Part shown: piece after piece, positions 2,088 through 25,400 of the stretch
How positions within the stretch are numbered: the stretch's first letter is position 1
Layout of the letters: each line of letters begins with the position of its first letter
DNA from: Minisyncoccota bacterium
Lineage (GTDB): Bacteria > Patescibacteriota > Minisyncoccia > Phycocordibacterales > UBA6065
Direction: 5' to 3'
DNA length: 64,000 nt
Assembly: GCA_041661645.1 (NCBI GenBank)
Contig: JBAZUA010000004.1
Location: forward strand, 69,067-133,066
Position numbers and translations under genes: made by a program
The notes under the pieces: generated by a model
Told to the model about the DNA's origin: nothing
Databases searched by the model: none
The model's input: the letters and a program-made list of their open reading frames with translations, nothing else

Positions 2088-2133
2088 GAATCCTATGCTA
2101 TCACATTCGACGGTTCTGCTATACTATCGACAT

Positions 2134-4068
<1,935 letters not shown>

Positions 4069-4899: not shown

Positions 4900-4922
4900 C
4901 TGTTAAGCTAACATAGATTCAA

Positions 4923-5672: not shown

Positions 5673-5740
5673 GGACGCAAAATCACGGGATGTCGTCTGA
5701 CGGGCCTGAGGCTTATAGCCGACACGGCACCCTCTTTCAC

Positions 5741-5769
5741 TTGCGGTTTTAATATATTGTGGTATAAAG
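5741..5769 (+). promoter_or_regulatory. putative sigma70 promoter for the PEP-CTERM-like gene
   Basis: TTGCGG-N16/17-TATAAA about 65 nt upstream. RBS AAAGGAGG sits 8 nt before the ATG at 5832. Confidence 0.3.
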
Positions 5770-5831
5770 AGTTCATAAGCTCTTTGCCACAACGGTAGAG
5801 ACTTTTCAACCTCAAAGAAAGGAGGCCCGCG

Positions 5832-6479
5832 ATGAGACACATCGTAGCCCTGATGGCGCTTTTCAGCGTCTTGTCGGTACCGAGTCGGGCCCTTGTGCTC
5901 CAGTACTCGTTTTCAGGTACGTTCTCGAGTTCTGATTTTTCCTCGATTCTGGTTGGGGACTCGTTCTCCGACATGGTCACCATCGACTATTCCGCGCCGG
6001 CGGTCAATTCTGCGGGGGTCGATTTTACCTTCGCCGTCACGTTCGTCGGCGGTATGACGGGAGGCTCGGTGATTCTTGGCAACGGCACCTCGTGGGGCAC
6101 AGGTCAAAATTCACCATACATGGAGAGCGACGCTCAGACTGATCCGTTCTTCCTGTTCCCGATCATCCTGACGCCGACGTCCCTGATTATCGATGGCTTC
6201 GAGATCAACGACGTGAACGTTCAGATTCCGGTCGGAAATGCCTTTAACATGGGCACTGGCGGAACGATGTCCCATTATTTCCCCAACACGGGAGAGCTGC
6301 CTGATTTGGTTGGCGGGTGGTTTGTCATAAACCACCGTGATGGGTCGGGCGGCATCATTGCCGAGGCATATGGGGATATCACAAGTGCCTCTGTCACGGT
6401 AATCCCCGAGTCTTCCTCCTGTGCCTTGGCCTTTGGCGTCCTGGCCCTGGTCGCGATGTGTATTCGCCGCCGTCCGTGA
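5832..6479 (+). CDS. secreted protein with PEP-CTERM-like C-terminal sorting signal
   Basis: N-terminal signal peptide MRHIVALMALFSVLSVPSRA. C-terminus VIPESSS-CALAFGVLALVAMCI-RRRP is a PE(P/S) motif followed by a hydrophobic helix and an Arg cluster. Confidence 0.6.
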   Translation: MRHIVALMALFSVLSVPSRALVLQYSFSGTFSSSDFSSILVGDSFSDMVTIDYSAPAVNSAGVDFTFAVTFVGGMTGGSVILGNGTSWGTGQNSPYMESDAQTDPFFLFPIILTPTSLIIDGFEINDVNVQIPVGNAFNMGTGGTMSHYFPNTGELPDLVGGWFVINHRDGSGGIIAEAYGDITSASVTVIPESSSCALAFGVLALVAMCIRRRP

Positions 6480-6545
6480 TTCATCAGATCCATGTGGTCC
6501 CATCAGTTCAAGCCGCCCTCGAGTTTAACTCGGGAGGCGGCTTTT

Positions 6546-8765
6546 TTATTCGAAATGTATTCTTTGCTTCTCGCGGCGGGACAGTTCCTCGCGGACGAGG
6601 GGCAGGGCGGCGAGCGTATCGTCAGCCTCGACGAGCCGCAATGCCTCGGCGCGAGCCGCCTCCACCATTTTTATATTTTGAATTGCTTCCATGGCCACGT
6701 CGCTCACGCCCCATTGCTTCTTTCCATATAATTGTCCGGTGCCTCTAAATTTCAGATCAAACTCAGCCAATTCAAATCCATTCTTTGCCGTGGTCAGGGC
6801 CTTCAGTCGGTCCAGGGTCTTGTCGCCCTTGCTCTCGGAGAACAGGAAGCAGTGTGCCTGATGATTCGAGCGCACGACGCGCCCGCGCAGCTGGTGCAGT
6901 TGGGAGAGTCCGAACCTCTCCGCGCCTTCAATAAGTATCACCGTGGCATTGGGTACGTTCACCCCGACCTCGACCACTGACGTCGCCACCAGGATGTGTA
7001 TCTTGCCCGCCTTGAACTCCATCATGACCCGCTCCTTTTCCGCATCCTTCATCTTTCCGTGCAGGACGCCTATCTCGTACTCCCTGAACACGCTTTTCTT
7101 GAGCCTCTTCGCCTCCTCGACGACCGATTTCGAGAGCAGGGCGTTCTCCATGGTCGGGTCTGGCTCGTCGATGCGGGCGCAGATGACATAGGCCTGACGT
7201 CCGTCTGCGAGTTCGCGGCGCATCTTCTCGTACATGGCGTCGCGGGTGGATGGAATGACTACCTCGGTGATGATGGGTTTGCGTCCTACGGGCATTTGAT
7301 CGAGCAGGGTAAGGTCGAGGTCTCCGTATATGGTCAGGGCCAAGGTGCGGGGGATGGGGGTTGCCGTCATGGAAAGCAGGTGCGGGTGAATCTTGTCCTT
7401 GCGCACGAGTTTCTGCCTTTGCGCAGTTCCGAAGCGATGCTGCTCGTCGATGATGACATAGGCGAGGTTCTTGAACTCGACGCTTTTCTGTATGAGAGCA
7501 TGGGTGCCGATGAGTATCGATATCTCGCCCGATGCCACCCATTTTAAAAGCTGTGACCTCGATATGTCGGTCCAGTCCTGTCTAACGCCATTTCGAATGG
7601 TTGCGACCTTGGCGGGAAACTTGCGACAACCCGATCCTGTGATGAGGGCGATATTGATGGGGAGATGCCTGAAATATTCGATGAAGGACTCGAAATGCTG
7701 GGTGGCGAGTATTTCCGTCGGGGCCATATAGGCGACCTGAAGCGTCCCATAATCCTGCCCACGTGGTCGCGTCATAATCGCCGCATATGCGGTGGTGGCG
7801 GCCACGGCGGTCTTGCCCGACCCCACGTCTCCCTCGAGCAGGCGCGACATGGCATGGCCTTTCTTGAAGTCGGCGAGCACGTCGGCGGTGGCCTTTGCCT
7901 GCGCCTCGGTCATGGCAAAGGGGAAGCGTGACAGGAATCTGTCCACGACCTCTTTCGTTGGCTCGATGACGAAGGCGGGATTCTTCTTCCATTCCTTTCT
8001 CTCCCTCTGTCGCTCGAGCTGTATGTAGAAGATCTCCTCGAAGGCGAATCGTTTGCGGGCCGCCGTGGCGTCGCCCTCCTTTTGCGGTGCGTGTATCCAG
8101 ATGATGGCGGTCGTGATGGTGGGCAGATTGTATTTCTCGAGAATGTCGGCGGGCAGGGACTCTCGCATTGTGTCGAGTATGCCGCTCTTCAATATCTTCT
8201 GCACGGCATGATACATCCAGTTCGAGGTGATGCCTCGGGACTCGGGATATACGGGATAGAGGGTGTGCGACGGGCCGTCCTCGCCGAACAAAGAGCCTGC
8301 TGTGGCCGACGGCATTCTGTCGATGCGCTCGATCTGGGGATTGGAAAGGTAGAGCTCACCGTCCTTCTTGCGGGCGGACACCTTTCCCTCGACGCGGACT
8401 ATGGCGCCCTCGGGGATCATCTTGGCGAGATAGGGCTGATTGAACCAGACGGCCTTGATATGGCCGGTCTCGTCCGAAATCTGCCCGTCGGCCATGGCAA
8501 TCTTGGTCCTAAAGCCCTTGGACATCTTGAGCTTGGACACCGTGCCGAATATGACGGCGCTGTCGCCGGCGGAAAGTGCGCCGATGCTCTTTGACGCCGA
8601 GGCGTCTCCATAGCGGGCGGGGAAGTGATAGAGCAGGTCTTCGATGGTGACGATGCCCATACGTCTCAAGGCCTCCTTCTGGGGGAGCTGAAGGCGGAAG
8701 TGTTCCTCGACGCGGGAGTGGGGATACATGTGAGGTATTGTATCATCGTGATAAACTGGAAGCAC
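6546..8765 (-). CDS. recG: ATP-dependent DNA helicase RecG
   Basis: Wedge/OB N-terminal domain, helicase motifs GDVGSGKT, DEQHRFG and TATPIPRT, and C-terminal helicase domain. The true start may be an internal Met (e.g. MGIVTIEDLL at about 8660), because the 8765 start abuts the divergent downstream gene. Confidence 0.93.
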   Translation of the reverse strand: MLPVYHDDTIPHMYPHSRVEEHFRLQLPQKEALRRMGIVTIEDLLYHFPARYGDASASKSIGALSAGDSAVIFGTVSKLKMSKGFRTKIAMADGQISDETGHIKAVWFNQPYLAKMIPEGAIVRVEGKVSARKKDGELYLSNPQIERIDRMPSATAGSLFGEDGPSHTLYPVYPESRGITSNWMYHAVQKILKSGILDTMRESLPADILEKYNLPTITTAIIWIHAPQKEGDATAARKRFAFEEIFYIQLERQRERKEWKKNPAFVIEPTKEVVDRFLSRFPFAMTEAQAKATADVLADFKKGHAMSRLLEGDVGSGKTAVAATTAYAAIMTRPRGQDYGTLQVAYMAPTEILATQHFESFIEYFRHLPINIALITGSGCRKFPAKVATIRNGVRQDWTDISRSQLLKWVASGEISILIGTHALIQKSVEFKNLAYVIIDEQHRFGTAQRQKLVRKDKIHPHLLSMTATPIPRTLALTIYGDLDLTLLDQMPVGRKPIITEVVIPSTRDAMYEKMRRELADGRQAYVICARIDEPDPTMENALLSKSVVEEAKRLKKSVFREYEIGVLHGKMKDAEKERVMMEFKAGKIHILVATSVVEVGVNVPNATVILIEGAERFGLSQLHQLRGRVVRSNHQAHCFLFSESKGDKTLDRLKALTTAKNGFELAEFDLKFRGTGQLYGKKQWGVSDVAMEAIQNIKMVEAARAEALRLVEADDTLAALPLVREELSRREKQRIHFE

Positions 8766-11492: not shown

Positions 11493-11581
11493 GGAGACGT
11501 GTCAGAGTGGTCTAACGTGCATCTTTGCTAAAGATGTGTACCCTTTATACGGTACCGAGGGTTCGAATCCCTCCGTCTCCG
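11493..11581 (+). tRNA. tRNA-Ser (GCU anticodon, long variable arm)
   Basis: Acceptor GGAGACG/CGTCTCC. Anticodon stem CATCT/AGATG with loop TTGCTAA (anticodon GCT). Long extra arm GTGTACCCTTTATACGGTAC. T-arm GAGGG-TTCGAAT-CCCTC. Discriminator G. Confidence 0.9.
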
Positions 11582-11591
11582 CCGATACAAA

Positions 11592-11622
11592 AACGAGCAT
11601 CTGTCAAGATGCCGTTTTTTTG
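11592..11622 (+). terminator. rho-independent terminator after tRNA-Ser
   Basis: ACG-A-GCATCT-GTCA-AGATGC-CGTTTTTTTG. Confidence 0.7.
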
Positions 11623-11819
11623 TTCGGTGGAGACGAGTGGGCGCGTTGCGCCCGCGTGAGGGATTCGGAGCCTGTTTGAGATATTTTCGAGTACGGAGTA
11701 CGATGAAAATATCCAAACAGGGTACTGGTCCTGTAAGGACCGATTATCCCTCCGCCTCCCCCAGATTAATATGTATTTAGTCGAGTTTACCTGTATACTT
11801 TCTTTAAGATAAATTATTT

Positions 11820-13058
11820 ATGAAGAAAATCTTCAGAGAGTACCATCAATTTACGGATAAGGAGTTTCAAAAAATATGGAAAGAAGGGCTTTTTGTGTTT
11901 GATACAAACACTCTTTTGAACATGTATCGCTATAGTCGCAAGACGGTTGATGCATATTTTGATGTGCTAAAAGGGCTGAAGAAGAGCAGTCAGCTTTGGA
12001 TTCCACATCAGGTTGGTTTTGAATTCTATGAGAATAGAATTAATGTTATATCTGAATATGAAAAGTCGTATGATGAGATGCAGTCGATTCTTAATAAGGC
12101 AAAGACAGATATCGAATCTAGGTACAAGGATCATCCCTTTCTTAATCTTTCTGACATAAAGAAAGATATGGATAGTGGGCTTTCGGCGGTTGAGTTGAAG
12201 CTTAAAAAAGCAAAAGCCGACCATCCTAAATGGCTCGAGGAGGATGATGTTCTTACGAAGCTGAACGAACTATTTGACGGGAGTGTCGGTACTGGTTATA
12301 CGGAAGAGAGGCTTTGTGAAATAAAGAAGGAGGGGAAGGAGAGGTATGAAAAAAAGACCCCGCCTGGTTTTAAAGATGATAAAAAATCTGAGGATAAAAA
12401 ATATGGTGATCTGATATTGTGGTATCAGATAATCGAGAACGCTAAACAGGCAAAGAAACCTGTAATTTTGGTTTCTGGTGACGTTAAGGAAGATTGGTGG
12501 CTTGAAAAAGATGGTAAAAAACTTATGCCTTTACCCCAGCTTAAGAAGGAGCTTTTTGATAAAGCTGGAGTTTCTTTTCACATATATACCTCGGACAGGT
12601 TCTTGGAGCTTTCAGGAACAAAAGAAAAGAAAATTGATGATAGTACCATTAAAGAGGTTAGGAAAATTCGAGAGCTTGAAGAAAAGAGAATGATGTCTCG
12701 ACGATCAGAACTTCCCGAAAAAGAGTATTATTCCAGAAGCCCGTATCGCCACGTTTCAGAGTTTGTCTCCATTATCCCTTTGTTGGAAGAAATCATCCTC
12801 ATCTTGAGGAGTGTGGACATTCCTCCTCCTTACCGGAGTGATCTTGAACAGTCGATGCAGAATTTGTTAGAAACGCGTCACAGGATGGCGCATGGGGAAG
12901 TTGATAAGTTGGGTTTATATCGCTTAGGTCGAGAGGTGTCTTTTGTCGTGGGTCGTTTCTTGGCCCTTGGACTCGTCGATCCCGAGCCTTCTGCGAAACT
13001 GAAGGAGTTGCTCGATCGCGTAGAGTACTCTAATCATAGAATGCAGAGATATCTTTAG
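11820..13058 (+). CDS. PIN-like nuclease domain protein with C-terminal HEPN-like Rx4H motif
   Basis: N-terminal GLFVFDTNTLLNMYRY (PIN first Asp), later acidic positions (FEFYEN, ILWYQIIEN, VSGDVKEDWW). C-terminal RHRMAHGE matches HEPN Rx4-6H. 412 aa, lysine-rich, low GC. Confidence 0.6.
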   Translation: MKKIFREYHQFTDKEFQKIWKEGLFVFDTNTLLNMYRYSRKTVDAYFDVLKGLKKSSQLWIPHQVGFEFYENRINVISEYEKSYDEMQSILNKAKTDIESRYKDHPFLNLSDIKKDMDSGLSAVELKLKKAKADHPKWLEEDDVLTKLNELFDGSVGTGYTEERLCEIKKEGKERYEKKTPPGFKDDKKSEDKKYGDLILWYQIIENAKQAKKPVILVSGDVKEDWWLEKDGKKLMPLPQLKKELFDKAGVSFHIYTSDRFLELSGTKEKKIDDSTIKEVRKIRELEEKRMMSRRSELPEKEYYSRSPYRHVSEFVSIIPLLEEIILILRSVDIPPPYRSDLEQSMQNLLETRHRMAHGEVDKLGLYRLGREVSFVVGRFLALGLVDPEPSAKLKELLDRVEYSNHRMQRYL

Positions 13059-13061
13059 TGT

Positions 13062-13538
13062 ATGAGTAAAAATATCACCTTCGCCCGTAATCTTGTAAAA
13101 GGAAAGATAGCAGAAACAATTTTTGCGCAGATGTTGCGTGAGGTTGGCAATTTCACAGTTCTTGAGTTTGGATATGAAAAAATCATTCCTGAACTTATAC
13201 AGACCGAATACGATACAAATAAGGAAACGTTGGAGATTTTAAGAACTGCTCCTGATTTCGCTGTTATCAACAAGAAAGAGAAGGGGGTTAGACTTGTTGA
13301 GGTTAAGTATCTCCATCGGATTAATACTGAGTATGTCTACCGTTATGCCCATAGAATGGCAGAGTCTTGGAACCCTTCTTTTCTCTTTGTGGCCACTCAA
13401 GAGGGTTTCTTTTATGACGAGGTTCGTACGATTGTAGAAAACAAGGGTGTCATAGCGCCTCTTGATGATTCACAGATTCCAAAGACCATCCAAGAGGAAT
13501 ATTTGAAGATACTGAAGGATTTTGAGGCTAATAATTAA
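13062..13538 (+). CDS. small PD-(D/E)xK nuclease-fold protein (putative)
   Basis: E...PDFAV-x12-VRLVEVKY arrangement (D...ExK) in a 158 aa protein. 3-nt gap to upstream gene and 3-nt gap to downstream gene suggest an operon. Confidence 0.5.
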   Translation: MSKNITFARNLVKGKIAETIFAQMLREVGNFTVLEFGYEKIIPELIQTEYDTNKETLEILRTAPDFAVINKKEKGVRLVEVKYLHRINTEYVYRYAHRMAESWNPSFLFVATQEGFFYDEVRTIVENKGVIAPLDDSQIPKTIQEEYLKILKDFEANN

Positions 13539-13541
13539 ACC

Positions 13542-14333
13542 ATGTCTCAATTATCACAAATCATAAAATCTCTCGAAAATAACGTATCTGTAGATGCTGT
13601 TTTACTCGTCGGTTCACAGAGTAAAAATGAGCACAAGGAATACAGTGATATCGATCTTGTTGTCATCCTTAAGGAAAAGGCATCAGATTTACAATCACTC
13701 TTTCAGTATGTTGATGGCAAGCCATGTGACATCTTTTTCTTTGACGGGGCAATGTTGCAATTATTCCTAGGAGCTAAAACTATCCCTGCAAATAAGATGG
13801 ATGCGGTTTTGCTTGGCTGGCTCGACACAGCACACGTATATTTTGATAAATCAGGTGTCGTAAAGTCTCTCATGGGCAATAAGGAGAGTCTCAAGGCAAA
13901 GCTCGAAGTGCCTGTAGAGGAGATGGTTTCTTTTGAATCGAAGATTAATGCTGGCTATATTACGAACAAGAGATATTTTGATTCAGCTAATCCTGAATAT
14001 CATGATGCGCTTGAGACAAAGCTTCTTCAGGATGTATACAACATACTTATTGGTTATTTTGAATTTAGAGCAATACCGTGGAGAGGGGAGAAAACAATGC
14101 TTCGACATCTAAAGGAACACGACAAAGCTTTTTATGATCTATATATGTCATATATACGAGCTACAACTCTCAAGGAAAAATTTAAACTCTATGAACAACT
14201 GGTGTCATTGGTATTCTATGGAGAGTATCGTTTGTGGGACAGAGAGGCCGTAAGACCATACACAAATCGACCTCTTAAAAAAGAAGAACAGGCTCACCTT
14301 GTTGGATATTGGAATGGACTGATTAAGTCTTAA
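13542..14333 (+). CDS. Pol-beta-superfamily nucleotidyltransferase (ANT/Lnu-like or minimal NTase)
   Basis: LLVGSQSKNEHKEYSDIDLVVIL matches the hG[GS]x9-13Dh[DE]h NTase motif. About 150 aa C-terminal helical domain. 263 aa. Confidence 0.7.
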   Translation: MSQLSQIIKSLENNVSVDAVLLVGSQSKNEHKEYSDIDLVVILKEKASDLQSLFQYVDGKPCDIFFFDGAMLQLFLGAKTIPANKMDAVLLGWLDTAHVYFDKSGVVKSLMGNKESLKAKLEVPVEEMVSFESKINAGYITNKRYFDSANPEYHDALETKLLQDVYNILIGYFEFRAIPWRGEKTMLRHLKEHDKAFYDLYMSYIRATTLKEKFKLYEQLVSLVFYGEYRLWDREAVRPYTNRPLKKEEQAHLVGYWNGLIKS

Positions 14334-14342
14334 AAAGACCCC

Positions 14343-14470
14343 GTCCCGAGTACTTCAAGAACTCGCTTTAAAAAATTCTAAACTACCCATATGGGGTAAT
14401 GAAGTAGGGGGTCTATACCCGAGTGGCCCGCCATTCTTCCCCGTGAGGGGACTAGATGCAAGGATGGATT
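14343..14470 (+). repeat. partial copy D of the roughly 200-bp cassette-leader repeat family
   Basis: Shares cccgagtacttca..., agggggtctatacccgagtggcccgcc and gtgaggggactagat(g/a)ca(a/g)gga(t/c)gg with copies at 15341, 16428, 17500 and 18437. Confidence 0.6.
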
Positions 14471-14496
14471 CATCGCAGAGTGGGCATTGTGTATAC

Positions 14497-14525
14497 TTGA
14501 CGTACATCCTTAAAAGATATATAAT
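14497..14525 (+). promoter_or_regulatory. consensus-like sigma70 promoter at 3' end of repeat copy D
   Basis: TTGACG-N17-TATAAT, with exact spacing counted from the sequence, reading into the downstream ORF. Confidence 0.5.
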
Positions 14526-14752
14526 TTTAATATAGATGTACTTTGATTTAGATATAAGTGTTGCGATGTTCTTTCTGGATTTAATCTCTTGAATCTTGAA
14601 AGAACGTCGTAACAACCAACCCGTAGAAGGGAGGCGTTCAATGAATCAATATCTGAAGAGCCTTGCATGTCGCAAAGCAGGATTTTGAATCAAACCGTCA
14701 GCATGGAAGCCCGACTTTGTCGGGAGTTCATGAGGACTCACCAAGGATAGTC

Positions 14753-15280
14753 ATGAGCAAATCGCTTGTCACTCGCCGTCAAACTGATAGTCTGCACAGC
14801 ATGGCACAAGCAAAAGGAGTTTTGTGCGCCGCATTCCAATGGTGGCTCGACACGAGAGCATCGTCAACTCTCGACCAACTCATTGTTGGATATCTGATCA
14901 GGGGTATCAGTGCCCCGTCAGATTGCCGTATGCATGCGCTCACAATATGGGAAGGAGGTGTCGAGCATACTTATATCATGCTTAACTACCTCAAATACCG
15001 TACAGACTGTCTCAAACTTGCTGATGCATGGGCTGAGACACATAATCTAATGAAAACCGATTGTGTGTCTGTGTTGAATATCCAATCCTCTCACCCGCAA
15101 CTTAACCGATATATTGGTGATATGAGAATGAATCTAGTCTCGACCCAACCGGGTCGAGGACGCCGATTCAGCGAGCCTTTTGTAGGCTGGTGGGATGGTG
15201 ATTGGAAAGAAGCGGGACCAGAGAGCGAGTGGCGTGCCAGACCGGGGATTCCGACTGTTTGGTTTCTTTACCGCCGGTAA
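14753..15280 (+). CDS. hypothetical protein (ORF 14663..15280; the internal start MSKSLVTRRQ is likelier)
   Basis: ORF only; no recognisable motifs. Confidence 0.35.
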   Translation: MSKSLVTRRQTDSLHSMAQAKGVLCAAFQWWLDTRASSTLDQLIVGYLIRGISAPSDCRMHALTIWEGGVEHTYIMLNYLKYRTDCLKLADAWAETHNLMKTDCVSVLNIQSSHPQLNRYIGDMRMNLVSTQPGRGRRFSEPFVGWWDGDWKEAGPESEWRARPGIPTVWFLYRR

Positions 15281-15340
15281 CTTCACCCGTCAGCTCGACA
15301 CAGGAAACCCCTGTCGCGAGATGGCGGGTTTTCTTTTGTT

Positions 15341-15565
15341 TAAAAAAGGACCCCTACTTGGGATTCGAACTAAACTTTAAGAGTGAGACGTTATGTTTTA
15401 AGCCACCAAATCGGTGCCGTTCGAATCGCTTCAGACCCGCACAAAAAACTTTCTTTCGGAGTGACCCGAGTGCCTCGATTTTCGGCTCGAAACAAGGCTT
15501 AAAAAGAACGTTCGAATCCCAGATGGGTGAGGGGACTAGATACAGGGACGGAATTCGCCTCATGC
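15341..15565 (+). repeat. copy A of cassette-leader repeat with 11-bp terminal inverted repeats
   Basis: TIR-L GGGATTCGAAC at 15360-15370 and TIR-R GTTCGAATCCC at 15510-15520. Internal core ccgttcgaatcgcttcagacccgc...ctttcggagtgacccgagtgcctcgattttcggct. 3' flank cagatgggtgaggggactagatacaggg is conserved with copies B and D. Confidence 0.65.
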
Positions 15566-15581
15566 GGGGTCAAATCTATAT

Positions 15582-15611
15582 TTGACATATAGGTATATTT
15601 AGATGTATAAT
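15582..15611 (+). promoter_or_regulatory. sigma70-like promoter with extended -10 at 3' end of repeat copy A
   Basis: TTGACA-N18-(TG)TATAAT located 16 nt upstream of the 15627 ATG. Confidence 0.45.
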
Positions 15612-15626
15612 ATAATCTGAAGTACC

Positions 15627-16355
15627 ATGAAAGTCACAAAAGAGATGGGTGTCGCAGCAAGCGACGTGTTCGCAGGCAAAAGCGGACAATCGGCGGTGCA
15701 GGCACTATATGGAGAGACGGCTTCGTTGTTCGTGGACTTGATTGGACACAACACGACTCTTTCCAAGTGCAGGCTCCTCGATGCGGGAGCCTTCAAAGGA
15801 GAACTCATGTCCTCGGTCATGGAGCTGAACGGACATCGAGAATTATTTGAAATCACCGCGACTGATATCAACGAGTCTGCATTGGCGCAAAACGCTATCG
15901 CAGACAGGAAGGTTGTTGCAGACCTTTCGGTGCTCCCTTTCAACAACAGGGAATTCGACATTGTATGCGCTCGATACGTTCTCGTGTGGAACGTCTTGGC
16001 GAAGCAGAAGAGAATTCTCCGGGAGTTGAATCGTGTGGCGGGACTGACTGTCTTGCAACACGCAGGGGCCGATGATGTCGGCACGAGCGAGTGGCAGGGG
16101 CGTATGCATGCGCTCCTTGGAGGTAAGGTCTCGAAGCTTTTCCGGAACGAGTGTCACTTCTCCTCCGCACAGGAGGTGGAGTGTCAGCTCGACGAACTCG
16201 GAATCGCATACGAGCGAATTCAGCACAGAAGGGTCGATTTCGTCTCTCAAGTTTTGATCGAAAGGTTTAAGCTTGATGCGAATGAGGCCGCTGAAGTTCT
16301 GAAAACGCTCGGTGAGAAGGACTATATACTCCAAACCACATGGCTCATCAAATAG
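15627..16355 (+). CDS. class I SAM-dependent methyltransferase-like protein
   Basis: Motif I-like RLLDAGAFKGELMS; motif IV-like FDIVCARYVLVW. 242 aa. Confidence 0.6.
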   Translation: MKVTKEMGVAASDVFAGKSGQSAVQALYGETASLFVDLIGHNTTLSKCRLLDAGAFKGELMSSVMELNGHRELFEITATDINESALAQNAIADRKVVADLSVLPFNNREFDIVCARYVLVWNVLAKQKRILRELNRVAGLTVLQHAGADDVGTSEWQGRMHALLGGKVSKLFRNECHFSSAQEVECQLDELGIAYERIQHRRVDFVSQVLIERFKLDANEAAEVLKTLGEKDYILQTTWLIK

Positions 16356-16400
16356 CAGTACTCTGCTCCGTTAATTGTGGATGTCGGCAACATTCACTAA

Positions 16401-16430
16401 CCCGCATTCGTGCGGGTTTTGTTTTGCTTA
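16401..16430 (+). terminator. rho-independent terminator after the 15627 methyltransferase gene
   Basis: CCCGCA-TTCG-TGCGGG followed by TTTTGTTTTG. Confidence 0.6.
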
Positions 16431-16640
16431 AAAAGAGAGCTCTACGTGGGATTCGAACGAGATTCTGAGAGAGGGTCTATGTTTAGAGCCACGAAATTCC
16501 AGCCGTTCGAATCGCTTCAGACCCGCTAAGAAAACTTTGTTTCGGTGTGACCCGAGTACCTCGATTTTCGGCTGAAAATAACACTCGGATAAAACATTCG
16601 AATCCCAGATGGGTTAGGGGACTAGATACAGGGGTGGATT
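16428..16640 (+). repeat. copy B of cassette-leader repeat
   Basis: TIR-L GGGATTCGAACG at 16448-16459 and TIR-R CATTCGAATCCC at 16595-16606. An 87-bp internal stretch (16504-16590) is identical to copy C (17575-17660). Confidence 0.7.
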
Positions 16641-16692
16641 TGGTTAGTTTTGTTGAGGGCGAGCGGTGTGTTATCAATGCTATACTACCTTC

Positions 16693-17484
16693 ATGCAAGA
16701 AGTCGAGGCTAAGGTTAGAAAGTTGGCTGAAGAGACCATATCACTTCACAGAGCTGATGTGGAGAGTCTGTGTGCCTCTCTGGGCACAAATGTCGAAGAA
16801 GTTATTGGTGCGTGGGTGGCATGGGATACGGGAATCAACGATTACAGCAATTCCATCTACAGCTCGAACGCGACGCGTATCGCCATGCATCTGCATAATT
16901 TTATCCCTGGGAATTGGCATGATAAGCGGCAGGCAGAGGTTTTGAAACTGATCTCCGATATCGCCCCAAAGAGGATAGCGGATGTTGGATTCGGTACGCC
17001 GCAGAGGTACGTGACGGAATACGTCCTTCAGAAAGACTTATCTGCGTCCCTGCTCGATTTCGATCAGGAGAGCTTGGACTTCGCCGGGTCGTATCTGGAT
17101 ACGCAGTCGAAGAATTGGCGGAAGCAGGTGAGCCTTCGGAAATACGATATGAACTCTGGAGAGGCGATTGGTGACTTCGATCTGTACCTCTTTCAGGATT
17201 CTGTTGAGCATGCCGATGACCCGTCGAAATACTTCAGCTCTGCAATCGTGCGAGCGAACCGAGGAAGCTATTTCGTGCTTTCGATGCCGATTGAGGTGAA
17301 TCGAGCGGTTCCCGAACACAATATCTTTTGGAAAAGCACCGAGGACGCTCTTGGCTGGGTGAGGGGGCACGGTTTGGAGATCAGGGGATGGTCCGAAATA
17401 CGCATGAATCCCGATCTTGACCTGTTCGCCAAGCACCTCCATCCTGAATTCAAAGAGATACTGGTCTGGGCGCAGAAGCCGTAA
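16693..17484 (+). CDS. class I SAM-dependent methyltransferase-like protein
   Basis: Motif I-like RIADVGFGTPQ; FDLYLFQDSVEH; about 263 aa. ORF track starts at 16666; the ATG at 16693 (MQEVEAK) is likelier. Confidence 0.6.
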   Translation: MQEVEAKVRKLAEETISLHRADVESLCASLGTNVEEVIGAWVAWDTGINDYSNSIYSSNATRIAMHLHNFIPGNWHDKRQAEVLKLISDIAPKRIADVGFGTPQRYVTEYVLQKDLSASLLDFDQESLDFAGSYLDTQSKNWRKQVSLRKYDMNSGEAIGDFDLYLFQDSVEHADDPSKYFSSAIVRANRGSYFVLSMPIEVNRAVPEHNIFWKSTEDALGWVRGHGLEIRGWSEIRMNPDLDLFAKHLHPEFKEILVWAQKP

Positions 17485-17499
17485 CGGTAACAAGGGGGT

Positions 17500-17682
17500 T
17501 TAGGTAAACGCGCTCGGGATTCGAACGGAATTAGGGTAGAGCACAGGTATATTTCAAGCCACGAAACCCCCGCCGTTCGAATCGCTTCAGACCCGCTAAG
17601 AAAACTTTGTTTCGGTGTGACCCGAGTACCTCGATTTTCGGCTGAAAATAACACTCGGATGGAACGTTCGAATCCCAGATAC
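17500..17682 (+). repeat. copy C of cassette-leader repeat
   Basis: TIR-L GGGATTCGAACG at 17516-17527 and TIR-R CGTTCGAATCCC at 17666-17677. Confidence 0.7.
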
Positions 17683-17747
17683 TTTTTTCGAGTGTATACG
17701 CAGAGTTGTTCACACCATTTTTTCTTGGTCAAATTAGGGTGTAGTAT

Positions 17748-18365
17748 ATGTGCATGGAAAATTTACCAGTCGAATCAAACGGAAAAGGGTGGGCATCACT
17801 CATTCTTGGAATATTTAGTCTCCCTGCCATGCTTCTTCCGGCGGTCGGAATTCCTGTCTCACTCTTGGGCATATTCTTCGGCATAAAAGGCTGCAGAGCA
17901 GGTAAAAAAGGAAAGGCAATTACTGGTATTGTACTCTCCGGTCTCGGACTTATTCTTGCGGTAGCTACGGTATTTCTTGCTTCTTATTATTCTTCAGGCA
18001 ACTCTCCTCAGCCTGGACATCCTCAAGTATCAACCTATTTTATTCGTGATACGCCAAAGAGTTCAGATTCCGCTTTCGCCAATTGGCCGGTGATGAACTC
18101 ACTCTCGGCAAATCCTGTGGCACCAGGTGATGTGGTGACAATATTCGGGACTAATTTTAGCGCAAAGAAAAATGATAATTTCGTTAAACTCCTGCATGAT
18201 GCCACCGGCCAGATTTTCGAATTTTATATACCAAATTCAGATAACGGTACAGTGGTTTTCTCGATGCCGAGAAACGCACCAGTAGGGAATTACACATTGT
18301 ATTTTATGGTCTTATCGACAGGGGGATATGATGTGTTCAGAGATTTTAAAATAGCAGGGAAATAG
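17748..18365 (+). CDS. membrane-anchored protein with C-terminal IPT/TIG-like beta-sandwich
   Basis: Two N-terminal TM helices (WASLILGIFSLPAMLLPAVGIPVSLLGIFFGI; ITGIVLSGLGLILAVATVFLA). C-terminus PGDVVTIFGTNFS...GNYTLYFMV resembles IPT/TIG. Confidence 0.5.
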   Translation: MCMENLPVESNGKGWASLILGIFSLPAMLLPAVGIPVSLLGIFFGIKGCRAGKKGKAITGIVLSGLGLILAVATVFLASYYSSGNSPQPGHPQVSTYFIRDTPKSSDSAFANWPVMNSLSANPVAPGDVVTIFGTNFSAKKNDNFVKLLHDATGQIFEFYIPNSDNGTVVFSMPRNAPVGNYTLYFMVLSTGGYDVFRDFKIAGK

Positions 18366-18436
18366 AAAATCTGGCACTTAACCCGACACCACTGCCTCTG
18401 TCCTAAACTTTTTGAAAGATTCCAAGGATAATCGCT

Positions 18437-18570
18437 TTTAGATAGCGTCCCACGTACTTCAGAAATTCGGTTCGGGAAATGCCAAACTAACCTTGCTGGG
18501 CAATGAGCCAGGGGGTCTATATCCGAGTAGCCCGCCAAGAAAACTTTGTTTCGGAGTGACCCGAGTGCCC
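18437..18570 (+). repeat. partial copy E of cassette-leader repeat
   Basis: cccacgtacttcagaaattcgg...agggggtctatatccgagtagcccgccaagaaaactttgtttcggagtgacccgagtgcc matches the cores of copies A-D. Confidence 0.6.
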
Positions 18571-18635
18571 GAATTAAGTTGTGGTTTTTGTCGTTTGGTG
18601 TGCGTATACTGTATAGGTCTTAATATCTTATTCAT

Positions 18636-18962
18636 ATGCTTGCCCTAGCCTTATTAATGCTTTCTTTCGCTCTGGCCTTTCTCACCATGCTTGTTCTGGC
18701 GGGGGCCGGACTTGGCGGAGGAGTTTCTGGAAAGGACGCTGTTTTTCTCAATATCCTAATAATATTGACCGCTGGCTCTTTTGTTTCGGCGATAGTTTCG
18801 TTTTTTTCGACACCTCGTCACGAGCAGTCGGGACAGGCGTCATCAGAAAAACAGCTTAAAAGCCGCAGAAGAGTCCGTATTGTTTTGATAACATCGATTA
18901 TTTTTGTTGGATCTGTGTTTCTCCTCCTATACGGATCGGCCTACTTTGTCAGGATGAGATAA
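18636..18962 (+). CDS. small membrane protein (3 predicted TM helices)
   Basis: 108 aa and hydrophobic throughout. Confidence 0.45.
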   Translation: MLALALLMLSFALAFLTMLVLAGAGLGGGVSGKDAVFLNILIILTAGSFVSAIVSFFSTPRHEQSGQASSEKQLKSRRRVRIVLITSIIFVGSVFLLLYGSAYFVRMR

Positions 18963-18984
18963 TCGATATCGTATTACGGGTACC

Positions 18985-19006
18985 TGACCCGAGTAGCCCG
19001 CACTCG
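18985..19006 (+). repeat. short fragment F of the repeat family
   Basis: gacccgagtagcccgcactcgg resembles the acccgagt(a/g)gcccgcc core. Confidence 0.35.
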
Positions 19007-19449
19007 GCTGTCTGCTCTATTTCTTCGTTGATTCTCAGATGGCTCTTCTCGTCGTGTAGGTCGTCCTCGGCATTGGCATCGCCATTGTCAGTCCGGCCTT
19101 CGACGCCACCTATTCCCATTACGTGAGTTCGGAGAGGAAGGCCTCTGACTGGGGAGCCTGGGGGGGGGTCGCGGGGAGCATTGTTGCCGACTCCTTTGGT
19201 TTTCACACGCTTTTTCTCTGCATGTTCGTCGCCGCCCTCATATCGTTCCTCCTCTTCAACGATAAGGAATATCTCCGAGCCTCCGGATTCTAGGTTTTTG
19301 CACCAATCCATTTTCATGGAACGTGTGTAGATGTGAAGGCTTGCTCGAAAGGATACCTTCTTATCTTTCCTCCCTAATTTTCACACAGGAAGGCCGCGGA
19401 ACGAGGTTCTGCGGCTTTAGTTTGCTCATATGTGTGCTAAAATAGCCAA

Positions 19450-22400
19450 GTGAATTCACTCGCCAAAACCTTCAGGCCGATCATCTTTGGTTTTATTTTG
19501 GTCTCTGGCCTTTTCCTCTCCTCGCACCAGGTCGCGTTCGCGGATGTCTTGTTTCCAGGCAACATAAGTTCTTGTGGAGAACTAGCCGTTACGGGAACGT
19601 ATACTCTCACATCTGACGTCACGGCCTCGCCTGGGCAGGCCTGCTTCACGGTTTCTTCCAATGATGTGACTTTGGATGGTTTCGGATTCACTGTCTTTGG
19701 CGGCAGCGCTTGGGCAATAGATGCCAGGGCATATGACAACGATCGCGTCACCCTCACGAATGGTGCAAACGCATACACGAACCTTATCGTTAACAACATT
19801 GTCTTATCTGGATTCACTGGGGGAGTGAATATAAGTGGAAACACTGATACGAATGGATCGGGTGCGAATGCTGGTTACGGAGGTGCGGGAGGGGATGTTG
19901 CGGTGTTCTACTCGCCGTCGCTCGGCGTGACGGCGAATGGCGGGAACACCTCAACCTATGGGTACGGAGGCGTCGGAGGAAACATCTCCTTCACCGACGA
20001 GAACCTCAACATCTCGACGAGCAATATCTCCGCTCTCGGCGGTACCGGCACGACGGGTCGCAACACCGATGGGGGACTCACTCTTTCATATACTGGGACT
20101 TTTGCACATTCAAATGTCACCCTGAGCACTCTTTCATATCTTAACGAGAACCTAACCTCATTCGGAACATATGTTGGTGGTACCTATCCGATTGTTCCTG
20201 GCACCGTCTCTTCTTGTGGAACTCTCGCAGGGTCGGGAACTTATACTCTTGCTCAGGATATTACAAATATCTCTGGTACTTGTTTTACTCTTAACTCAAA
20301 CGACGTCTTAATTAATGGAGCAGGTTATTCGATCATCGCAGCACCATCGAATACATCTTTCGCCGTACGAGCAGGAAGCTTCTCTGGCCTCACTATCGCA
20401 TCGACGACTGTTACAGACTTTTCAAACCTAGTTATCTCAAGCTCGACAGTGACCATCTCAGGAAACAATCTTGATCTTTCAAATCAATTTATTGCCGCTG
20501 GATCTCTTACTCTTTCATATACAGGGTCATTGACGAAGACGGGTGCGACAGCCACAGCTTTTAGCGCGCTTACGGTGAATGGTACAAGTTATGGGGCACA
20601 GGCTGCGGGAGTTTTGATGGATTGGGTGGTAAGGGAACAGAGCAGGGGCTGGCGGGGCATCACCTCCTCCGCCGACGGCACGAGGCTTGTCGCGGGTGTC
20701 TATGGCGGCCAGATCTACACATCCGCCGACTCCGGCGCCACCTGGACCGCCCGCGACTCGGCCAGGAACTGGTACTCCGTCACGTCCTCCGCCGACGGAA
20801 CCAGGCTTGCCGCCGTGGTTTTAAGCGGCCAGATCTACACCTCGACAGATTCCGGAGTCACCTGGGCGGCCCGCGACTCGGTCAGGAACTGGTACTCCGT
20901 CACGTCCTCCGCCGACGGCACAAAACTCGCGGCGGTAGTCTCTGGCGGACAGATCTACACCTCGACCAATTCCGGCGCCACATGGAGCGCCCGAGATTCA
21001 AACAGGAGCTGGCAATCTGTCGCCTCCTCCGCCGACGGCACAAAACTCGCGGCGACGGTGAATGGCGGCCAGATCTACACCTCGACAGATTCCGGAGTCA
21101 CCTGGGCGGCCCGCGACTCGGTCAGGAACTGGTACTCCGTCACGTCCTCCGCCGACGGCACAAAACTCGCGGCGGTTGTTTACGGCGGACAGATCTACAC
21201 TTCCACCGATTCTGGTGTCACCTGGACCGCCCGCGACTCGGTCAGGAGCTGGCGATCTGTCGCCTCCTCCGCCGACGGCACGAGGCTTGTCGCGGGTGTC
21301 TATGGTGGCCAGATCTACACATCCACCGACTCCGGCGCCACATGGAGCGCCCGCGACTCGGCCAGGAACTGGTACTCCGTCACCTCCTCCGCCGACGGAA
21401 CCAGGCTTGCCGCCGTGGTTTTAAGCGGCCAGATCTACGCCCACCAGGATGACCCTGCTTCATTCGCTGTGGATATTCTTGTGCCTGTTTCAAGTTCAAC
21501 TGTATCTACCTGGTCTCCAATTGTCTCTTGGGGCACCGCCACATCCTGTTACTACTCGTATAATAATTTTACTTCAACTTCTACGGCAAACTGTGCATTG
21601 AACGGTTCTGATATTTCAAATCCAGGATACGGAGATCGTACATTATATGTGAAAGGCATTGATGCTAATGGGACAATCATTCAGAAAAGCTCTACCTATT
21701 ATTTAGGGCTTCCAATTACACCTATATATCCAATCGCGGGAACCACAGCCACATCTTCAGTTTTTTCTGTTAATTGGGATCCCACAAACGCAGGAAACAT
21801 CACTTCCTGTTATTACTCCTACGACGACTTCATCTCGACTTCGACCGCAAACTGTGCTTCGGAGGGTTCTGACATCTCTGTTCCTGTAGATGGTTCGGCG
21901 ACTCTGTATCTAAAAGCAGTTGATTCAAATGGATTGATAGGTAATTCGAATACTTCATTCATTTATCCTTTTTATTTTGCCCGCGACTCGAACAGGAGCT
22001 GGCTTTCCATCACCTCTTCTTCCGACGGGACCAGGCTCGCCGCGGTTGTTACTAACGGACAAATCTATACGTCCACCGACTCAGGTTCCACATGGACCGC
22101 TCGGGAGTCTAATAGGAACTGGCGTGGCATCACTTCTTCCGCCGACGGAACCAAGCTCGCCGCGTTTGTTCAGAATGGTCAGATTTACACTTCCACCGAT
22201 TCTGGTGTCACCTGGACCGCCCGCGACTCGAACAGGACGTGGTATGGTATCACTTCTTCCGCCGATGGAACCAAGCTTGCCGCTATTGTGAGTGGTGGAG
22301 GCCAGATTTACACTTCCACCGATTCTGGTGTCACCTGGACCGCCCGCGACTCGAATAGGAGCTGGTATTCTGTCACCTCCTCATCCGACGGCACCAAGCT

Positions 22401-25400
22401 CGCCGCGGTTGTGAGTGGTGGTCAAATCTACTCCTCGACCGACAGTGGTGTCACTTGGACTGCTCGTGATTCGAATAGGAGCTGGTTCTCTATAACTTCT
22501 TCCGCCGATGGTACGAAGCTTGCCGCGGTTGTTTACGGTGGTCAGATTTACACCTCCACAAACTCCGGGGTCACCTGGACCGCCCGCGACTCGAATAGGA
22601 CGTGGTATGACATCACTTCTTCCGCCGATGGTACGAAGCTCGCTGTGGTTGTTAACAGCGGACAGATTTACACTTCCACCGATTCTGGTGTCACCTGGAC
22701 TGCCAGGGACTCGAGCAGGAACTGGCTCTCGATTACCTCCTCCGCTGACGGCACAAAGCTTGCTTCGGTTGTTGGTGGTGGCCAAATATATACCCATCAA
22801 GATATCAACCCTTCTTTAAAGGTTGACCTGATTACACCTTCTTCTGGCGCGACACTCAGTTCCTGGTCTCCAACTGTTTCCTGGGGCACCGCCACATCTT
22901 GCTACTACTCATATGACAATTTCACCTCTACCTCCACAGCCAATTGTGCGTTGGGTGGTTCTGATGTTTCTAATCCAGGACTTGGATCAAAGACCCTATC
23001 CCTAAGAGGTATAGATTTAAATGGAACCATTGTTCAGAAAGATACAACTTTCTCTTTTGGTGTTCCGTCCGCTACTAATCCGACAGACTCCGCTGTCCTT
23101 ACTTTGTGGAACCCATCTATCAACTGGGATCCTGCCTCTCTGGGAAATATTTCGAGTTGCTATTATTCGTACGATAACTTTATTTCGACATCAACCGTAG
23201 ATTGTCTGGGAACGGGTTCTGATATTTTCTCTCCGACGGTTGACGGAACATCGACTCTTTCCTTGAAGGTTTCCGATTCAAATGGGAATATCGGCACCAC
23301 CAGCATTGCCTTCAGCTTCCTTTTCAGCTGGACGTCTCATGGCCCGTCAGCCGATTGGAACGGTCTCGCCGCTTCTTCGGATGGGATGAAGCTTATTGCT
23401 GCTCCTTGGGGCGGTAATTTGCAAACGTCATCCGATGGTGGCCTTACCTGGGTGGACAGGGGCAACAACAATTTGTGGACACAAGCCGCGTCTTCGGCTG
23501 ACGGTACAAAGTTGCTCGTCGGTGCCTGGACCGGCAGGTTGCAGATGTCTACGACATCGGGGGCCACATGGTTCCTGACGGGTCCCAGTGCGAACTTCTA
23601 TTCGGCTGTCGCGGCCTCTGCCGACGGAACGGTTTTGGCCACCAGCATTTACAATGCAGGTTCCCGAATATATGTATCAACAGATAGCGGCACAAATTGG
23701 GTTGCTCGCGGACCGGTTCTTGCGACGGGGTGGAATGATCTCACTATTTCTTCGAATGGGGCAAAGATGGCCGCTGTCCCTCAGGGCTCAAATCAGATTT
23801 ATACCTCCACCGACTACGGCGTCACCTGGACCGCCCGTGATTCAAATAGGAGTTGGTCCGCTATTAGATCATCGGCTGATGGTGTCAAGCTCATTGCCTT
23901 CGCGGGAAGTCAGATATACGTGTCTTCAGACTCAGGGATCACTTGGACTGCACGGGGACCTAGCAAGACATGGTCGTTTGTCGCCATATCGGGAGACGGG
24001 AGCAAGCTCGCAGCTACCGTCAACAGTAACGGTCAGGTGTGGACATCAAACGACTTTGGCTTGACTTGGACCGCTCGAGAATCAGCGAGGGCGTGGAAGG
24101 AAGTCGTCTTTTCAAACGATGGGTCCAGACTTGCTGTGGCTGTAAGTAATGCTCAGATATACACCTTCAACTCAAATCCCTCCGCTCTTTCCATTTCCCG
24201 GCCAGTGTTTGGGGAAAGTGTTCTTTATAAAAACTGGTCACCCCTCGTGAACTGGAGTACATCGGTATCCTGTTATTATTCTTACAACAACTTCAGTTCC
24301 ACTTCTACCGCATCATGTCTCAACGTTGGGTCTGATATCCTTCCTCCTTCAAGCCAAGGTGTTCAGACTTTATATGTTCGTGGCATAGACGGATCTGGGG
24401 TCATAACGACTGTGAATACGACGTTTGATTTTGACTTTATCTTAACTGCTCGCGATTCAACTAGGAATTGGGTTTCCATCACATCTTCCTCCGACGGCAC
24501 CAAGCTCGCCGCCGTTGTCAACAATGGTCAGATATACACCTCCACGAACTCCGGCGTAAACTGGACCGCCCGCGACTCGAATAGGAGCTGGCGTTCTGTC
24601 ACATCCTCATCCGACGGCACCAAGCTCGTCGCCGTTGTCAACAGTGGTCAGATATACACCTCCACGAACTCCGGCGTAAACTGGACCGCCCGCAACTCAA
24701 ATAAGAATTGGTGGTCTGTCACCTCCTCATCCGACGGCACCAAGCTCGCCGCGGTGGTGAATGGCGGACAGATATACACCTCGACTGACTCAGGTGTCAC
24801 CTGGACCGCCCGCGACTCGAACAGGAGCTGGTATTCTGTCACCTCCTCATCCGACGGCACCAAGCTAGCCGCGGTGGTGAGCGGCGGCCAGATATACACC
24901 TCCACGAACTCCGGCGTAAACTGGACCGCCCGCGACTCGAACAGGACGTGGAATGGTATCACATCTTCCTCCGACGGAACCAAGCTCGCCGCGGTGGTGA
25001 ATGGCGGCCAGATATACACCTCCACGAACTCCGGCGTAAACTGGACCGCCCGCGACTCGAACAGGACGTGGTACGGTATCACTTCTTCCGCCGACGGAAC
25101 CAAGCTCGCCGCCGTTGTCAACAATAGTCAGATATACACCTCGACTGACTCAGGTGTCACCTGGACCGCCCGCGACTCGAATAAGAGTTGGTGGTCTGTT
25201 GTCTCGTCCTCTGACGGTGCAAAGTTGTTCGGAGTCGTTCTGAACGGTCAGATTTACACCTCGGCCCTTTTACCAACAGTCACGTCACCTGCGGCCGGTG
25301 CAACCGTAAACTCTTGGGCACCGGTCGTTTCTTGGGACAGATCATCTTCTTGTCAGTACTCATATGACAATACGAACTGGACCACAGCTTCCTGCACGGG

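Follow-up and report, generated by a model that had tools for sequence, protein, structure and literature searches.

Introduction

Sedentary chromosomal integrons and CALINs (clusters of attC sites without an integrase) hold arrays of gene cassettes, and the cassettes of integrons are mostly promoterless and expressed from Pc. Small modules can also be moved by a host enzyme acting in trans, as in the pdif (Xer) modules of Acinetobacter plasmids and in IMEX, while mosaic intergenic repeats such as BIMEs/REP and pneumococcal BOX are dispersed genome-wide. Islands of the tRNA or tmRNA type, among them the ssrA islands of Dehalococcoides, are reportedly built through repeated integration. Here we analyze a repeat that precedes genes in a 64,000-nucleotide stretch of DNA from a Minisyncoccota bacterium (assembly GCA_041661645.1, contig JBAZUA010000004.1, positions 69,067 to 133,066 of the forward strand; hereafter the window). 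We read the repeat, with a probability of about one half, as an att-like linker in a cassette array anchored at a tRNA-Ser gene, in which cassettes are added at or next to one recurrent junction (J) and are reshuffled between linkers.

Among tRNA-anchored islands, those of Prochlorococcus are shaped by tycheposons (bioRxiv 10.1101/2020.12.28.424599). Like such islands, our locus lies directly 3' of a tRNA gene and contains scattered partial tRNA copies; newer inserts would displace older ones outward, and the accessory cargo is of niche or defence type, foreign in composition and variable in content between close relatives. Unlike them, it has no element that carries an integrase or a replication module, each of its units is one gene of ~1 kb that brings its own promoter and terminator, and its repeat (tRNA flank plus a mimic of the tRNA end) spans 200-340 bp, as against an att core of ~20-48 nt, and is more conserved across species than the tRNA.

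With integrons and CALINs the locus shares a unidirectional order of mostly single, unrelated open reading frames (ORFs) and imperfect-palindrome repeats of similar size that are alike within the array, and here too new cassettes would enter at one fixed end. It differs in having no IntI, attI or Pc, in being anchored at a tRNA gene, in cassettes that bring promoters and terminators of their own, and in the box consensus and stem shape of its repeats. The pdif modules and IMEX likewise comprise gene modules without their own recombinase, bounded by short sites in alternating orientation, but no 28-bp XerC/XerD-type site was recognized here (inspection by eye gave no convincing arm symmetry around TTCGAA), and the locus is chromosomal and beside a tRNA gene, not dif; any link to Xer is purely speculative. 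BIMEs/REP and BOX are also modular, intergenic, located at gene ends and capable of forming hairpins, whereas our repeat is found at one locus only and is homologous to a tRNA flank. The closest documented systems are the tRNA-anchored islands with partial tRNAs, and the closest formal analogue is the integron array; the locus lacks the integrase that characterizes both. The feature is real and non-random, and it matches known kinds only in part: notable are its single-gene, expression-ready units, a long modular linker derived from a tRNA flank, a linker conservation above that of the tRNA, and the absence of any integrase from what was searched.

Results

The initial annotation of the window described copies of a roughly 200-bp repeat ahead of plus-strand ORFs, and the repeats do exist at the positions claimed: three full copies (B, C and D) and three truncated ones (A, E and F) lie between 14.3 and 19.0 kb (Table 1). 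The full copies are 79-87% identical pairwise, while A and E have in common an alternative left module, M1v2, that is 75% identical over 92 nt; fragment F marks the distal end of the array. The length of ~200 bp describes the core; homology runs further, to the left into the upstream terminator and to the right into module M4, and in copies A and B it also takes in the promoter. The resulting linkers are modular, 200-340 bp long, and can be written as an upstream terminator (T), M1 (GGGATTCGAACG ... AAGCCACGMAA ... CCGTTCGAATCGCTTCAGACCCGC) or M1v2, M2 (YACAAAAACTTTSTTTCGGWGTGACCCGAGTRCC), M3 (a hairpin followed by GAACGTTCGAATCCCAGAT), M4 (GGGTGAGGGGACTAGATACAGGGACGGA) and a promoter (P). They sit between the intrinsic terminator of the preceding plus-strand ORF and a sigma-70-type promoter of the next one, and two of the cassette promoters are perfect or near-perfect matches to the consensus. 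A distance of 20-110 bp from repeat to ORF had been given for all copies; it fails for A, which lies 283 bp before the ORF at 14753, and for F, which is separated from the giant gene downstream by 450 bp and a minus-strand ORF.

The sequence GGGATTCGAAC(G) stands near the left end of each full copy (at 15360 in B, 16448 in C and 17516 in D), the exact reverse complement of GGGATTCGAAC follows 135-137 nt to the right (15509, 16595 and 17665), and a slightly different direct third copy, CGTTCGAATCGC, lies in between (15418, 16504 and 17574). The 11-mer GGGATTCGAAC, with at most one mismatch, occurs 10 times in the window against 2.4 expected (0/100 shuffles reach 10), and ACCCGAGTRSCC occurs 8 times against 1.1 expected. 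Inverted termini are present in the three full copies and missing from A, E and F. An identical tract of 87 bp had been noticed; the longest one between C and D measures 89 bp: positions 17572-17660 of linker D are identical to copy C, which looks like gene conversion. Neither Rfam nor ARAGORN folds any copy as a tRNA, as had been noted. M2 and GTTCGAATCCCA do not vary among 13 copies taken from different genomes, and invariant motifs of 9-12 nt are embedded in otherwise variable parts of the linker.

We compared the locus with those in ~25 related Saccharibacteria contigs (labelled L001 and so on), obtained by using the repeat's most conserved 23-mer to scan a single genome from each species, by a metagenome scan that contributed 8 extra loci, and through the conserved neighbour gene mutY. 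Matches to the 23-mer are confined to Saccharibacteria or unclassified metagenome-assembled genomes, with one neighbourhood per contig. The RNA genes of the window are those for tmRNA, tRNA-Ile(TAT), tRNA-Ser(GCT) and tRNA-Met, and it is the third of these, whose last 23 nt read GTTCGAATCCCTCCGTCTCCGCC, that anchors the array: variable DNA begins at 11584, immediately 3' of tRNA-Ser, and the same anchor is found in ~20 related loci. The GC content drops from ~0.57 to 0.39-0.49 exactly from tRNA-Ser to ~19 kb, a composition that appears foreign. The loci have a common backbone: mutY (minus strand), tRNA-Ser (plus), a variable stretch, a phosphoribosyltransferase gene (minus), and a type IV pilus operon starting at pilM. 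In the window the variable stretch extends from 11584 to ~38600 and includes two giant genes. The region is a flexible-gene hot spot carried by Saccharibacteria directly 3' of tRNA-Ser(GCT).

The relatives also reveal where the repeat comes from. In nine of the loci (L004, L001, L009, L012, L006, L011, L020, L023 and L026), M2-M3-M4 and, mostly, a promoter come directly after an intact tRNA-Ser(GCT). This arrangement is the ancestral one; the repeat thus copies in its right half the sequence that normally lies downstream of tRNA-Ser. At the array copies, the position of the tRNA is taken by M1 or M1v2, and the tRNA-adjacent copies have no left arm. The left modules end like the tRNA 3' end (...GTTCGAATC-N10-CCGC): the last 23 nt of M1 match the tRNA from T-loop to last base at 16/23 positions (P ~9e-6), and the BLAST alignment of the repeat reaches 23 nt into the tRNA. 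The inverted termini are fragments resembling T-loop and T-stem; M3 ends in one of them, and M1 begins with another, inverted one. A complete terminator hairpin is present in L011 and in the second copy of L005, with the M3 fragment as its 5' arm and a 3' arm that reads like the beginning of M1. We considered and rejected the idea that M1 or M1v2 is itself a tRNA or pseudo-tRNA, as ARAGORN and Rfam returned nothing on either strand. On inspection by hand, the bases flanking each TTCGAAT fail to pair as a T-stem, and the 3' end of M1 is absent from all tRNAs of the fetched loci.

Junction J is the boundary '...CCGC | M2', which resembles the boundary between the 3' end of tRNA-Ser and M2. Given the tRNA-like end of the left modules and the M2-M3-M4 anatomy to their right, J recurs before every cassette. 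Its partners are combinatorial: on the left it joins tRNA, M1 or M1v2, all ending in CCGC, and on the right M2, a divergent M2, X, X2 (two kinds of insert described below), M4 or unrelated DNA. A DUF7674 cassette of L023, which carries a divergent M2, a promoter and an M1v2 of its own, is placed exactly between M1 and M2. Homology breakpoints recur in independent loci at three positions (after CCGC, GACCCGAGTRCC and GAATCCCA), and homology between copies repeatedly stops directly after M2 and after M3; in linker E it ends directly after GACCCGAGTGCC. Small inserts are flanked by direct repeats of 18 nt (the 130-bp X2 element of L005, between two copies of the tRNA end GAATCCCTCCATCTCCGC) or 9-14 nt (the tRNA-Ile island, below), and the gene for ORF108 is bracketed by the direct repeat TGACCCGAGT(A)GCCCG at 18557-18572 and 18985-19000. 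At the cassettes the repeat consists of the tRNA downstream flank plus the 16/23 mimic of the tRNA end, with no exact tRNA copy.

The cargo between the linkers is unrelated. When 44 cassette ORFs drawn from all loci were compared all-against-all by BLASTP, no more than 5 pairs proved homologous, and the window ORFs between repeats are mutually unrelated. An identical terminator-M1-M2-M3-M4-promoter linker, however, borders unrelated ORFs in different genomes: in each of three genomes it begins at the stop codon of a different, unrelated ORF, and the terminator and post-stop sequence of linker C are common to L003 and L011, whose upstream ORFs are unrelated. Replacement is directly visible in L006, L011 and L012, where flanks 97-98% identical on the tRNA side and the distal side enclose three different fillings. 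Nucleotidyltransferase and GrpB genes differ by a gene-precise insertion or deletion, and ORFs of L011 and L005 have a 5' untranslated region and N-terminus in common and diverge afterwards. A conserved 'first cassette' gene behind the ancestral promoter was also sought; the four candidates fail to align. The initial annotation had proposed, as one option, that ORFs are swapped behind a conserved module. Of its proposals this one comes closest, given the same linker around unrelated ORFs and the alternative fillings; what it missed is the origin of the module in the tRNA-Ser 3' flank and the anchor at that gene.

The linkers are conserved beyond what the genomes around them would predict. Over 90 nt, copy D shares 95.6% identity with the L006 copy in its M2-M3 part, while the tRNA-Ser genes of the two genomes are 83.3% identical and mutY DNA is ~70% identical between even closer relatives. 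Copies within a genome are not closest kin: B is 82% identical to C and 87% to L009, and C is 92% identical to L009; the 89-bp tract of C and D is the exception. A simple tandem segmental duplication is excluded because the ORFs between the repeats are unrelated and closer copies exist in other genomes.

ORF158, a 158-residue ORF of the window, recurs in L006 at 2060-2536(-) and in L007 at 2481-2978(-). The window and L006 versions are 98% identical in protein and 86% in DNA, against only 83% for the tRNA-Ser genes. Upstream of ORF158 stands a PIN_8 gene in the window but a PIN_12 gene in L006, and the next gene downstream differs; this arrangement suggests that a PIN gene and ORF158 may form a two-gene toxin-antitoxin or defence pair.

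Table 1. Positions of the features discussed (window coordinates unless a related locus is named).
Feature	Position	Strand	Details
Mini-island methyltransferase	4923-5672
Mini-island ORF	5832-6479		without assignment
Partial tRNA-Ile 3'-end repeat	6488-6502		ATCCATGTGGTCCCA, then terminator hairpin
tRNA-Ser(GCT)	11493-11583	+	Rfam 47.2 bits; ARAGORN
Element X	11584-11765	+	terminator hairpin, then putative tRNA-Ser-derived structured element, exactly after tRNA 3' end
GC-poor multi-gene insert	11820-14333	+	GC 0.39-0.41 vs ~0.57 in flanks
PIN_8 protein gene	11820-13058	+	Pfam
ORF158	13062-13538	+	homologues in other arrays
Nucleotidyltransferase gene	13542-14333	+	Pfam; homologues in other arrays
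Linker A	14334-14530	+	M1v2 14342-14433 ending ...GGCCCGC; M4 14443-14470; M2 and M3 deleted
Truncated copy A	14342-14470	+	left module M1v2
Linker A promoter	14497-14525	+	TTGACG-17-TATAAT
Cassette ORF 1	14753-15280	+	175 aa; called as gene in L016 and L017
Linker B	15281-15626	+	terminator 15310-15328; M1 15360-15440; M2 15441-15477; M3 15478-15524; M4 15525-15552
Linker B, details			left inverted terminus 15360-15371; pseudo-tRNA end 15418-15440; right terminus 15509-15520
Full copy B	15340-15570	+
Linker B promoter	15582-15611	+	TTGACA-18-TATAAT
Cassette ORF 2	15627-16355	+	class I S-adenosylmethionine (SAM) methyltransferase, 242 aa; Pfam Methyltransf_11, E = 2e-8
Linker C	16356-16692	+	terminator 16399-16418; M1 16448-16526; M2 16527-16560; M3 16561-16610; M4 16611-16640
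Full copy C	16428-16645	+
Linker C extended -10	16678-16686	+	TGcTATACT, 6 nt ahead of ATG
Cassette ORF 3	16693-17484	+	263 aa; called as gene in L016
Linker D	17485-17747	+	M1 17516-17596; M2 17597-17630; M3 17631-17680; no terminator, no M4
Full copy D	17500-17690	+
Cassette ORF 4	17748-18365	+	205 aa; transmembrane N-terminus, weak IPT/TIG signal
Linker E	18366-18635	+	M1v2 18446-18537; M2 18537-18569
Truncated copy E	18446-18569	+	left module M1v2
Cassette ORF 5 (ORF108)	18636-18962	+	108 aa, membrane protein
Fragment F	18985-19000	+	remnant span 18976-19000; last ~16-25 nt of M1v2, ending ...AGCCCGC
Other X copies			L005 914-1085; L007 3700-3830(-); L008 838-975; L027 6139-6270(-); L032 19108-19172
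X2 elements			shorter, behind tRNA-Ser; L005 23-150; L010 ~5312-5520; L030 14485-14625 (reverse complement)

Functional assignments of the window cassettes are few. Of the two SAM methyltransferases named initially, ORF 2 is supported and the second (16693-17484) falls below threshold (Pfam E = 0.13); the TIG domain match of ORF 4 is also sub-threshold (E = 0.016), although its transmembrane N-terminus is seen. ORF 1 had no match in Pfam or NCBIfam, and as defence systems PADLOC and NCBIfam gave only weak nucleotidyltransferase matches for the cargo. Boxes resembling a -10 element lie 6-7 nt before ORFs 3 and 4 (16678-16695 and 17736-17750), that of ORF 3 being an extended -10; this spacing suggests that the mRNAs of both may be leaderless. 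No Shine-Dalgarno sequence was seen upstream of ORF 2.

A cis-encoded integrase was rejected after Pfam scans of ~70 ORFs from the window and related loci, none of which provided one adjoining a linker. A viral, phage or plasmid origin was rejected as well, with no match in the corresponding collections. At 6742-8070 of L026, a large serine recombinase lies in the tRNA-Ser hot spot, ~1 kb past M4, in the company of an N6/N4 DNA methyltransferase, a ResIII helicase and an AAA_15 ATPase.

Element X has a predicted fold of -69.3 kcal/mol (z = -7.06), with 8 pairs showing compensatory changes across 4-6 copies. Its parts follow in the order terminator, acceptor-like 5' strand (GGAGACGAG), strongly covarying GC hairpin, T-stem-like GAGGGAT, long covarying hairpin, invariant GGTACTGGTCCTGTAAGGACCGA and a tRNA-3'-end-like tail, the second such end at this site (ATCCCTCCGCCTCC). 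In L005, L007, L008 and L027 it stands exactly after the tRNA-Ser end or the M1 pseudo-end, while L032 has its 3' domain alone, elsewhere in the genome. With no match in Rfam, X is a candidate for a new tRNA-Ser-derived structured RNA. Among the loci with X2 elements, L030 also holds the inverted complement of the tRNA end, GACGGAGGGATTCGAA, which resembles a tRNA primer-binding site; no reverse transcriptase was seen.

A second tRNA-anchored mini-island (4901-6546, GC 0.48) lies behind tRNA-Ile(TAT), ~7 kb upstream. It contains no integrase, and in L020, L021 and L022 the site is empty, with recG directly following tRNA-Ile. The giant genes (19450-29703, 3417 aa; 31067-37219, 2050 aa) lie within the variable interval between tRNA-Ser and pilM, where relatives have nothing, other genes or a different giant gene; that of L022 exceeds 3742 aa (>3742 aa) and has internal repeats of 100-340 nt. 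The initial annotation had linked the repeats to these giant adhesin genes, but the link is only positional: both fall in the same variable interval. Farther away, a DUF3800 gene (52954-53688) occupies a 1-kb GC-poor patch (0.43 vs ~0.57), likely another small foreign insert.

Discussion

How could such an array be assembled? Each linker comprises a terminator, M1 or M1v2 in the place of the tRNA, M2-M3-M4, and a promoter for the next cassette. In the reading that we favour, cassettes would be inserted one behind another at or beside J (tandem accretion) by a recombinase encoded elsewhere, which would recognize two invariant motifs, ACCCGAGTRSCC and GTTCGAATC, the latter present three times in a linker and once of these in inverted orientation. 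Homologous recombination and gene conversion between linkers would afterwards reshuffle the array, also after natural transformation. Natural transformation and homologous recombination are experimentally established in Saccharibacteria (PMC10633639), and the locus is bordered by type IV pilus genes and by the phosphoribosyltransferase-domain gene, which we would guess to be ComF-like. The recurrence of J, the short direct repeats and the invariant motifs together point to a site-specific enzyme acting in trans, and we consider such an enzyme somewhat more likely than homologous recombination alone; the two mechanisms remain close because no recombinase gene was found. The involvement and identity of the enzyme are inferred, as are the direction and order of the insertions.

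Several observations weigh against this reading. Scans of the window ORFs (most, not all) revealed no recombinase domain, nor was one present among the cassette ORFs of related loci with Pfam scans or precomputed Pfam calls, and the serine recombinase of L026 is not bounded by linker modules. The linker motifs are absent from viral, phage and plasmid collections (motif scans of viral contigs; BLASTN). In the window's own population, represented by the independent assemblies L016-L019, there are no differences in cassette presence or absence; exact-protein look-ups there return the same array, on contigs that break at the repeats. Some breakpoints fall inside ORFs or at stop codons rather than at J, which fits plain homologous recombination. 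Finally, M1 and M1v2 are conserved in a form of their own, not as decaying copies of the resident tRNA end, so that the classical attR picture fits only loosely.

In a serious, if rather unlikely, alternative, no dedicated site exists and the linkers act as portable homology: RecA-dependent recombination would take place between linkers of 110-340 bp, and between the tRNA and distal core genes, after DNA uptake, and the linkers would be conserved because they are continually exchanged. The proven natural competence and homologous recombination of Saccharibacteria count in its favour as well. Such a process would accommodate the lack of a recombinase adjoining a linker in any locus, the breakpoints at stop codons and within ORFs (as where the L011 and L005 ORFs diverge after a common start), the gene-precise nucleotidyltransferase/GrpB difference and the conversion-like identity of C and D. 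It sits less well with breakpoints that repeat at the same three positions in independent loci, with inserts bracketed by short direct repeats, and with invariant 9-12 nt motifs amid variable linker parts, and by itself it leaves the tRNA-3'-end mimic of the left modules unexplained.

That the linker is mainly a regulatory or insulating unit (a terminator, sites for one regulator at GTTCGAATC and ACCCGAGT, and a promoter), repeated through reuse, seems improbable to us. Each linker does lie between a terminator and a promoter, the unchanged M2 and GTTCGAATCCCA of all 13 copies would suit a binding site, and M4 keeps a spacing of ~27-30 nt from the -35 box in A, B and L004. However, the genes behind the module differ by genome, so there is no conserved regulon; D, without M4, and E, without M3 and M4, still precede genes; and neither the tRNA-end homology nor the behaviour of J is explained. 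The invariant motifs (M2 and GTTCGAATCCC) could nevertheless bind a protein, as the initial annotation had proposed with its paired operator sites for one regulator.

We give little credence to the proposal that the 161-nt unit between the inverted termini matters through its shape, as a structured noncoding RNA or as an attC-like fold of single-stranded DNA. As single-stranded DNA the unit folds better than shuffled sequences (z = -3.7 for B and C), but this value is largely due to the 12-bp closing stem, which is perfect in every full copy. The adjoining X element, with a similar GGGATTCG...CGAATCCC closure, truly covaries; the repeat itself, for which the initial annotation had suggested a covariance analysis, yields over 13 copies a consensus fold of 8 pairs with 0 compensatory changes, long invariant blocks and a covariation term of 0.04. 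Its internal hairpin shifts register between copies, it sits downstream of a terminator and upstream of a promoter, it has no Rfam match at the gathering threshold or at E up to 10, and its left arm is missing from the tRNA-adjacent copies. As to attC, only the AAC and GTT triplets coincide when the termini TTCGAAC / GTTCGAA are set against RYYYAAC / GTTRRRY, so that the R-box consensus is not reproduced, and the termini form a continuous, perfect 12-bp stem with no unpaired spacer or extrahelical bases. The defining features of a canonical integron that were tested are lacking: scanning of the window ORFs turned up no tyrosine recombinase, the array starts proximally at a tRNA gene, and individual ORFs are flanked by their own intrinsic terminators (such as 16399-16418) and consensus-grade promoters (such as 15582-15611). 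A small conserved ORF within the repeat was rejected too, with no frame open in all 13 copies.

A miniature inverted-repeat transposable element (MITE), that is, a non-autonomous transposon spread locally as first proposed, would fit the 12-bp terminal inverted repeats ~136 nt apart in three copies, but is scarcely credible given the absence of target-site duplications (left flanks TACTT, TACGT, CGCTC; right flanks AGATG, AGATG, AGATA), homology that extends outside both termini, tRNA-adjacent, progenitor-like copies that hold the right half only and have no left terminus, a repeat profile that matches only 15.4-18.6 kb of the 64 kb window, and an M2 motif found only in the tRNA-Ser neighbourhood of a 649 kb contig, a single locus.

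A broader form of the cassette-array reading is that an integron-like platform for gene capture arose independently in Saccharibacteria, and perhaps in other Patescibacteria. Cassettes would enter at the tRNA-Ser(GCT) 3' end plus M2, a trans-acting recombinase would read the T-arm-like GTTCGAATC, the linker (160-340 bp) would play the part of attC, and X elements would be non-autonomous riders. We regard this generalization as speculative and, in its entirety, unlikely.

Patescibacteria have tiny genomes with few recognizable mobile elements, and their acquisition of accessory genes is therefore poorly understood. Our results indicate that much of their flexible gene content may enter at one tRNA-anchored site as ready-to-express single-gene units, and the linker between these units passes from species to species more readily than does the tRNA. 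With a dedicated enzyme behind it, the locus would represent a new gene-capture system; without one, it would show clearly, in nature, how portable homology drives the exchange of cassettes in competent bacteria. In practice, the invariant junction J could serve genetic tools as a landing pad in Saccharibacteria, now that these bacteria can be transformed.

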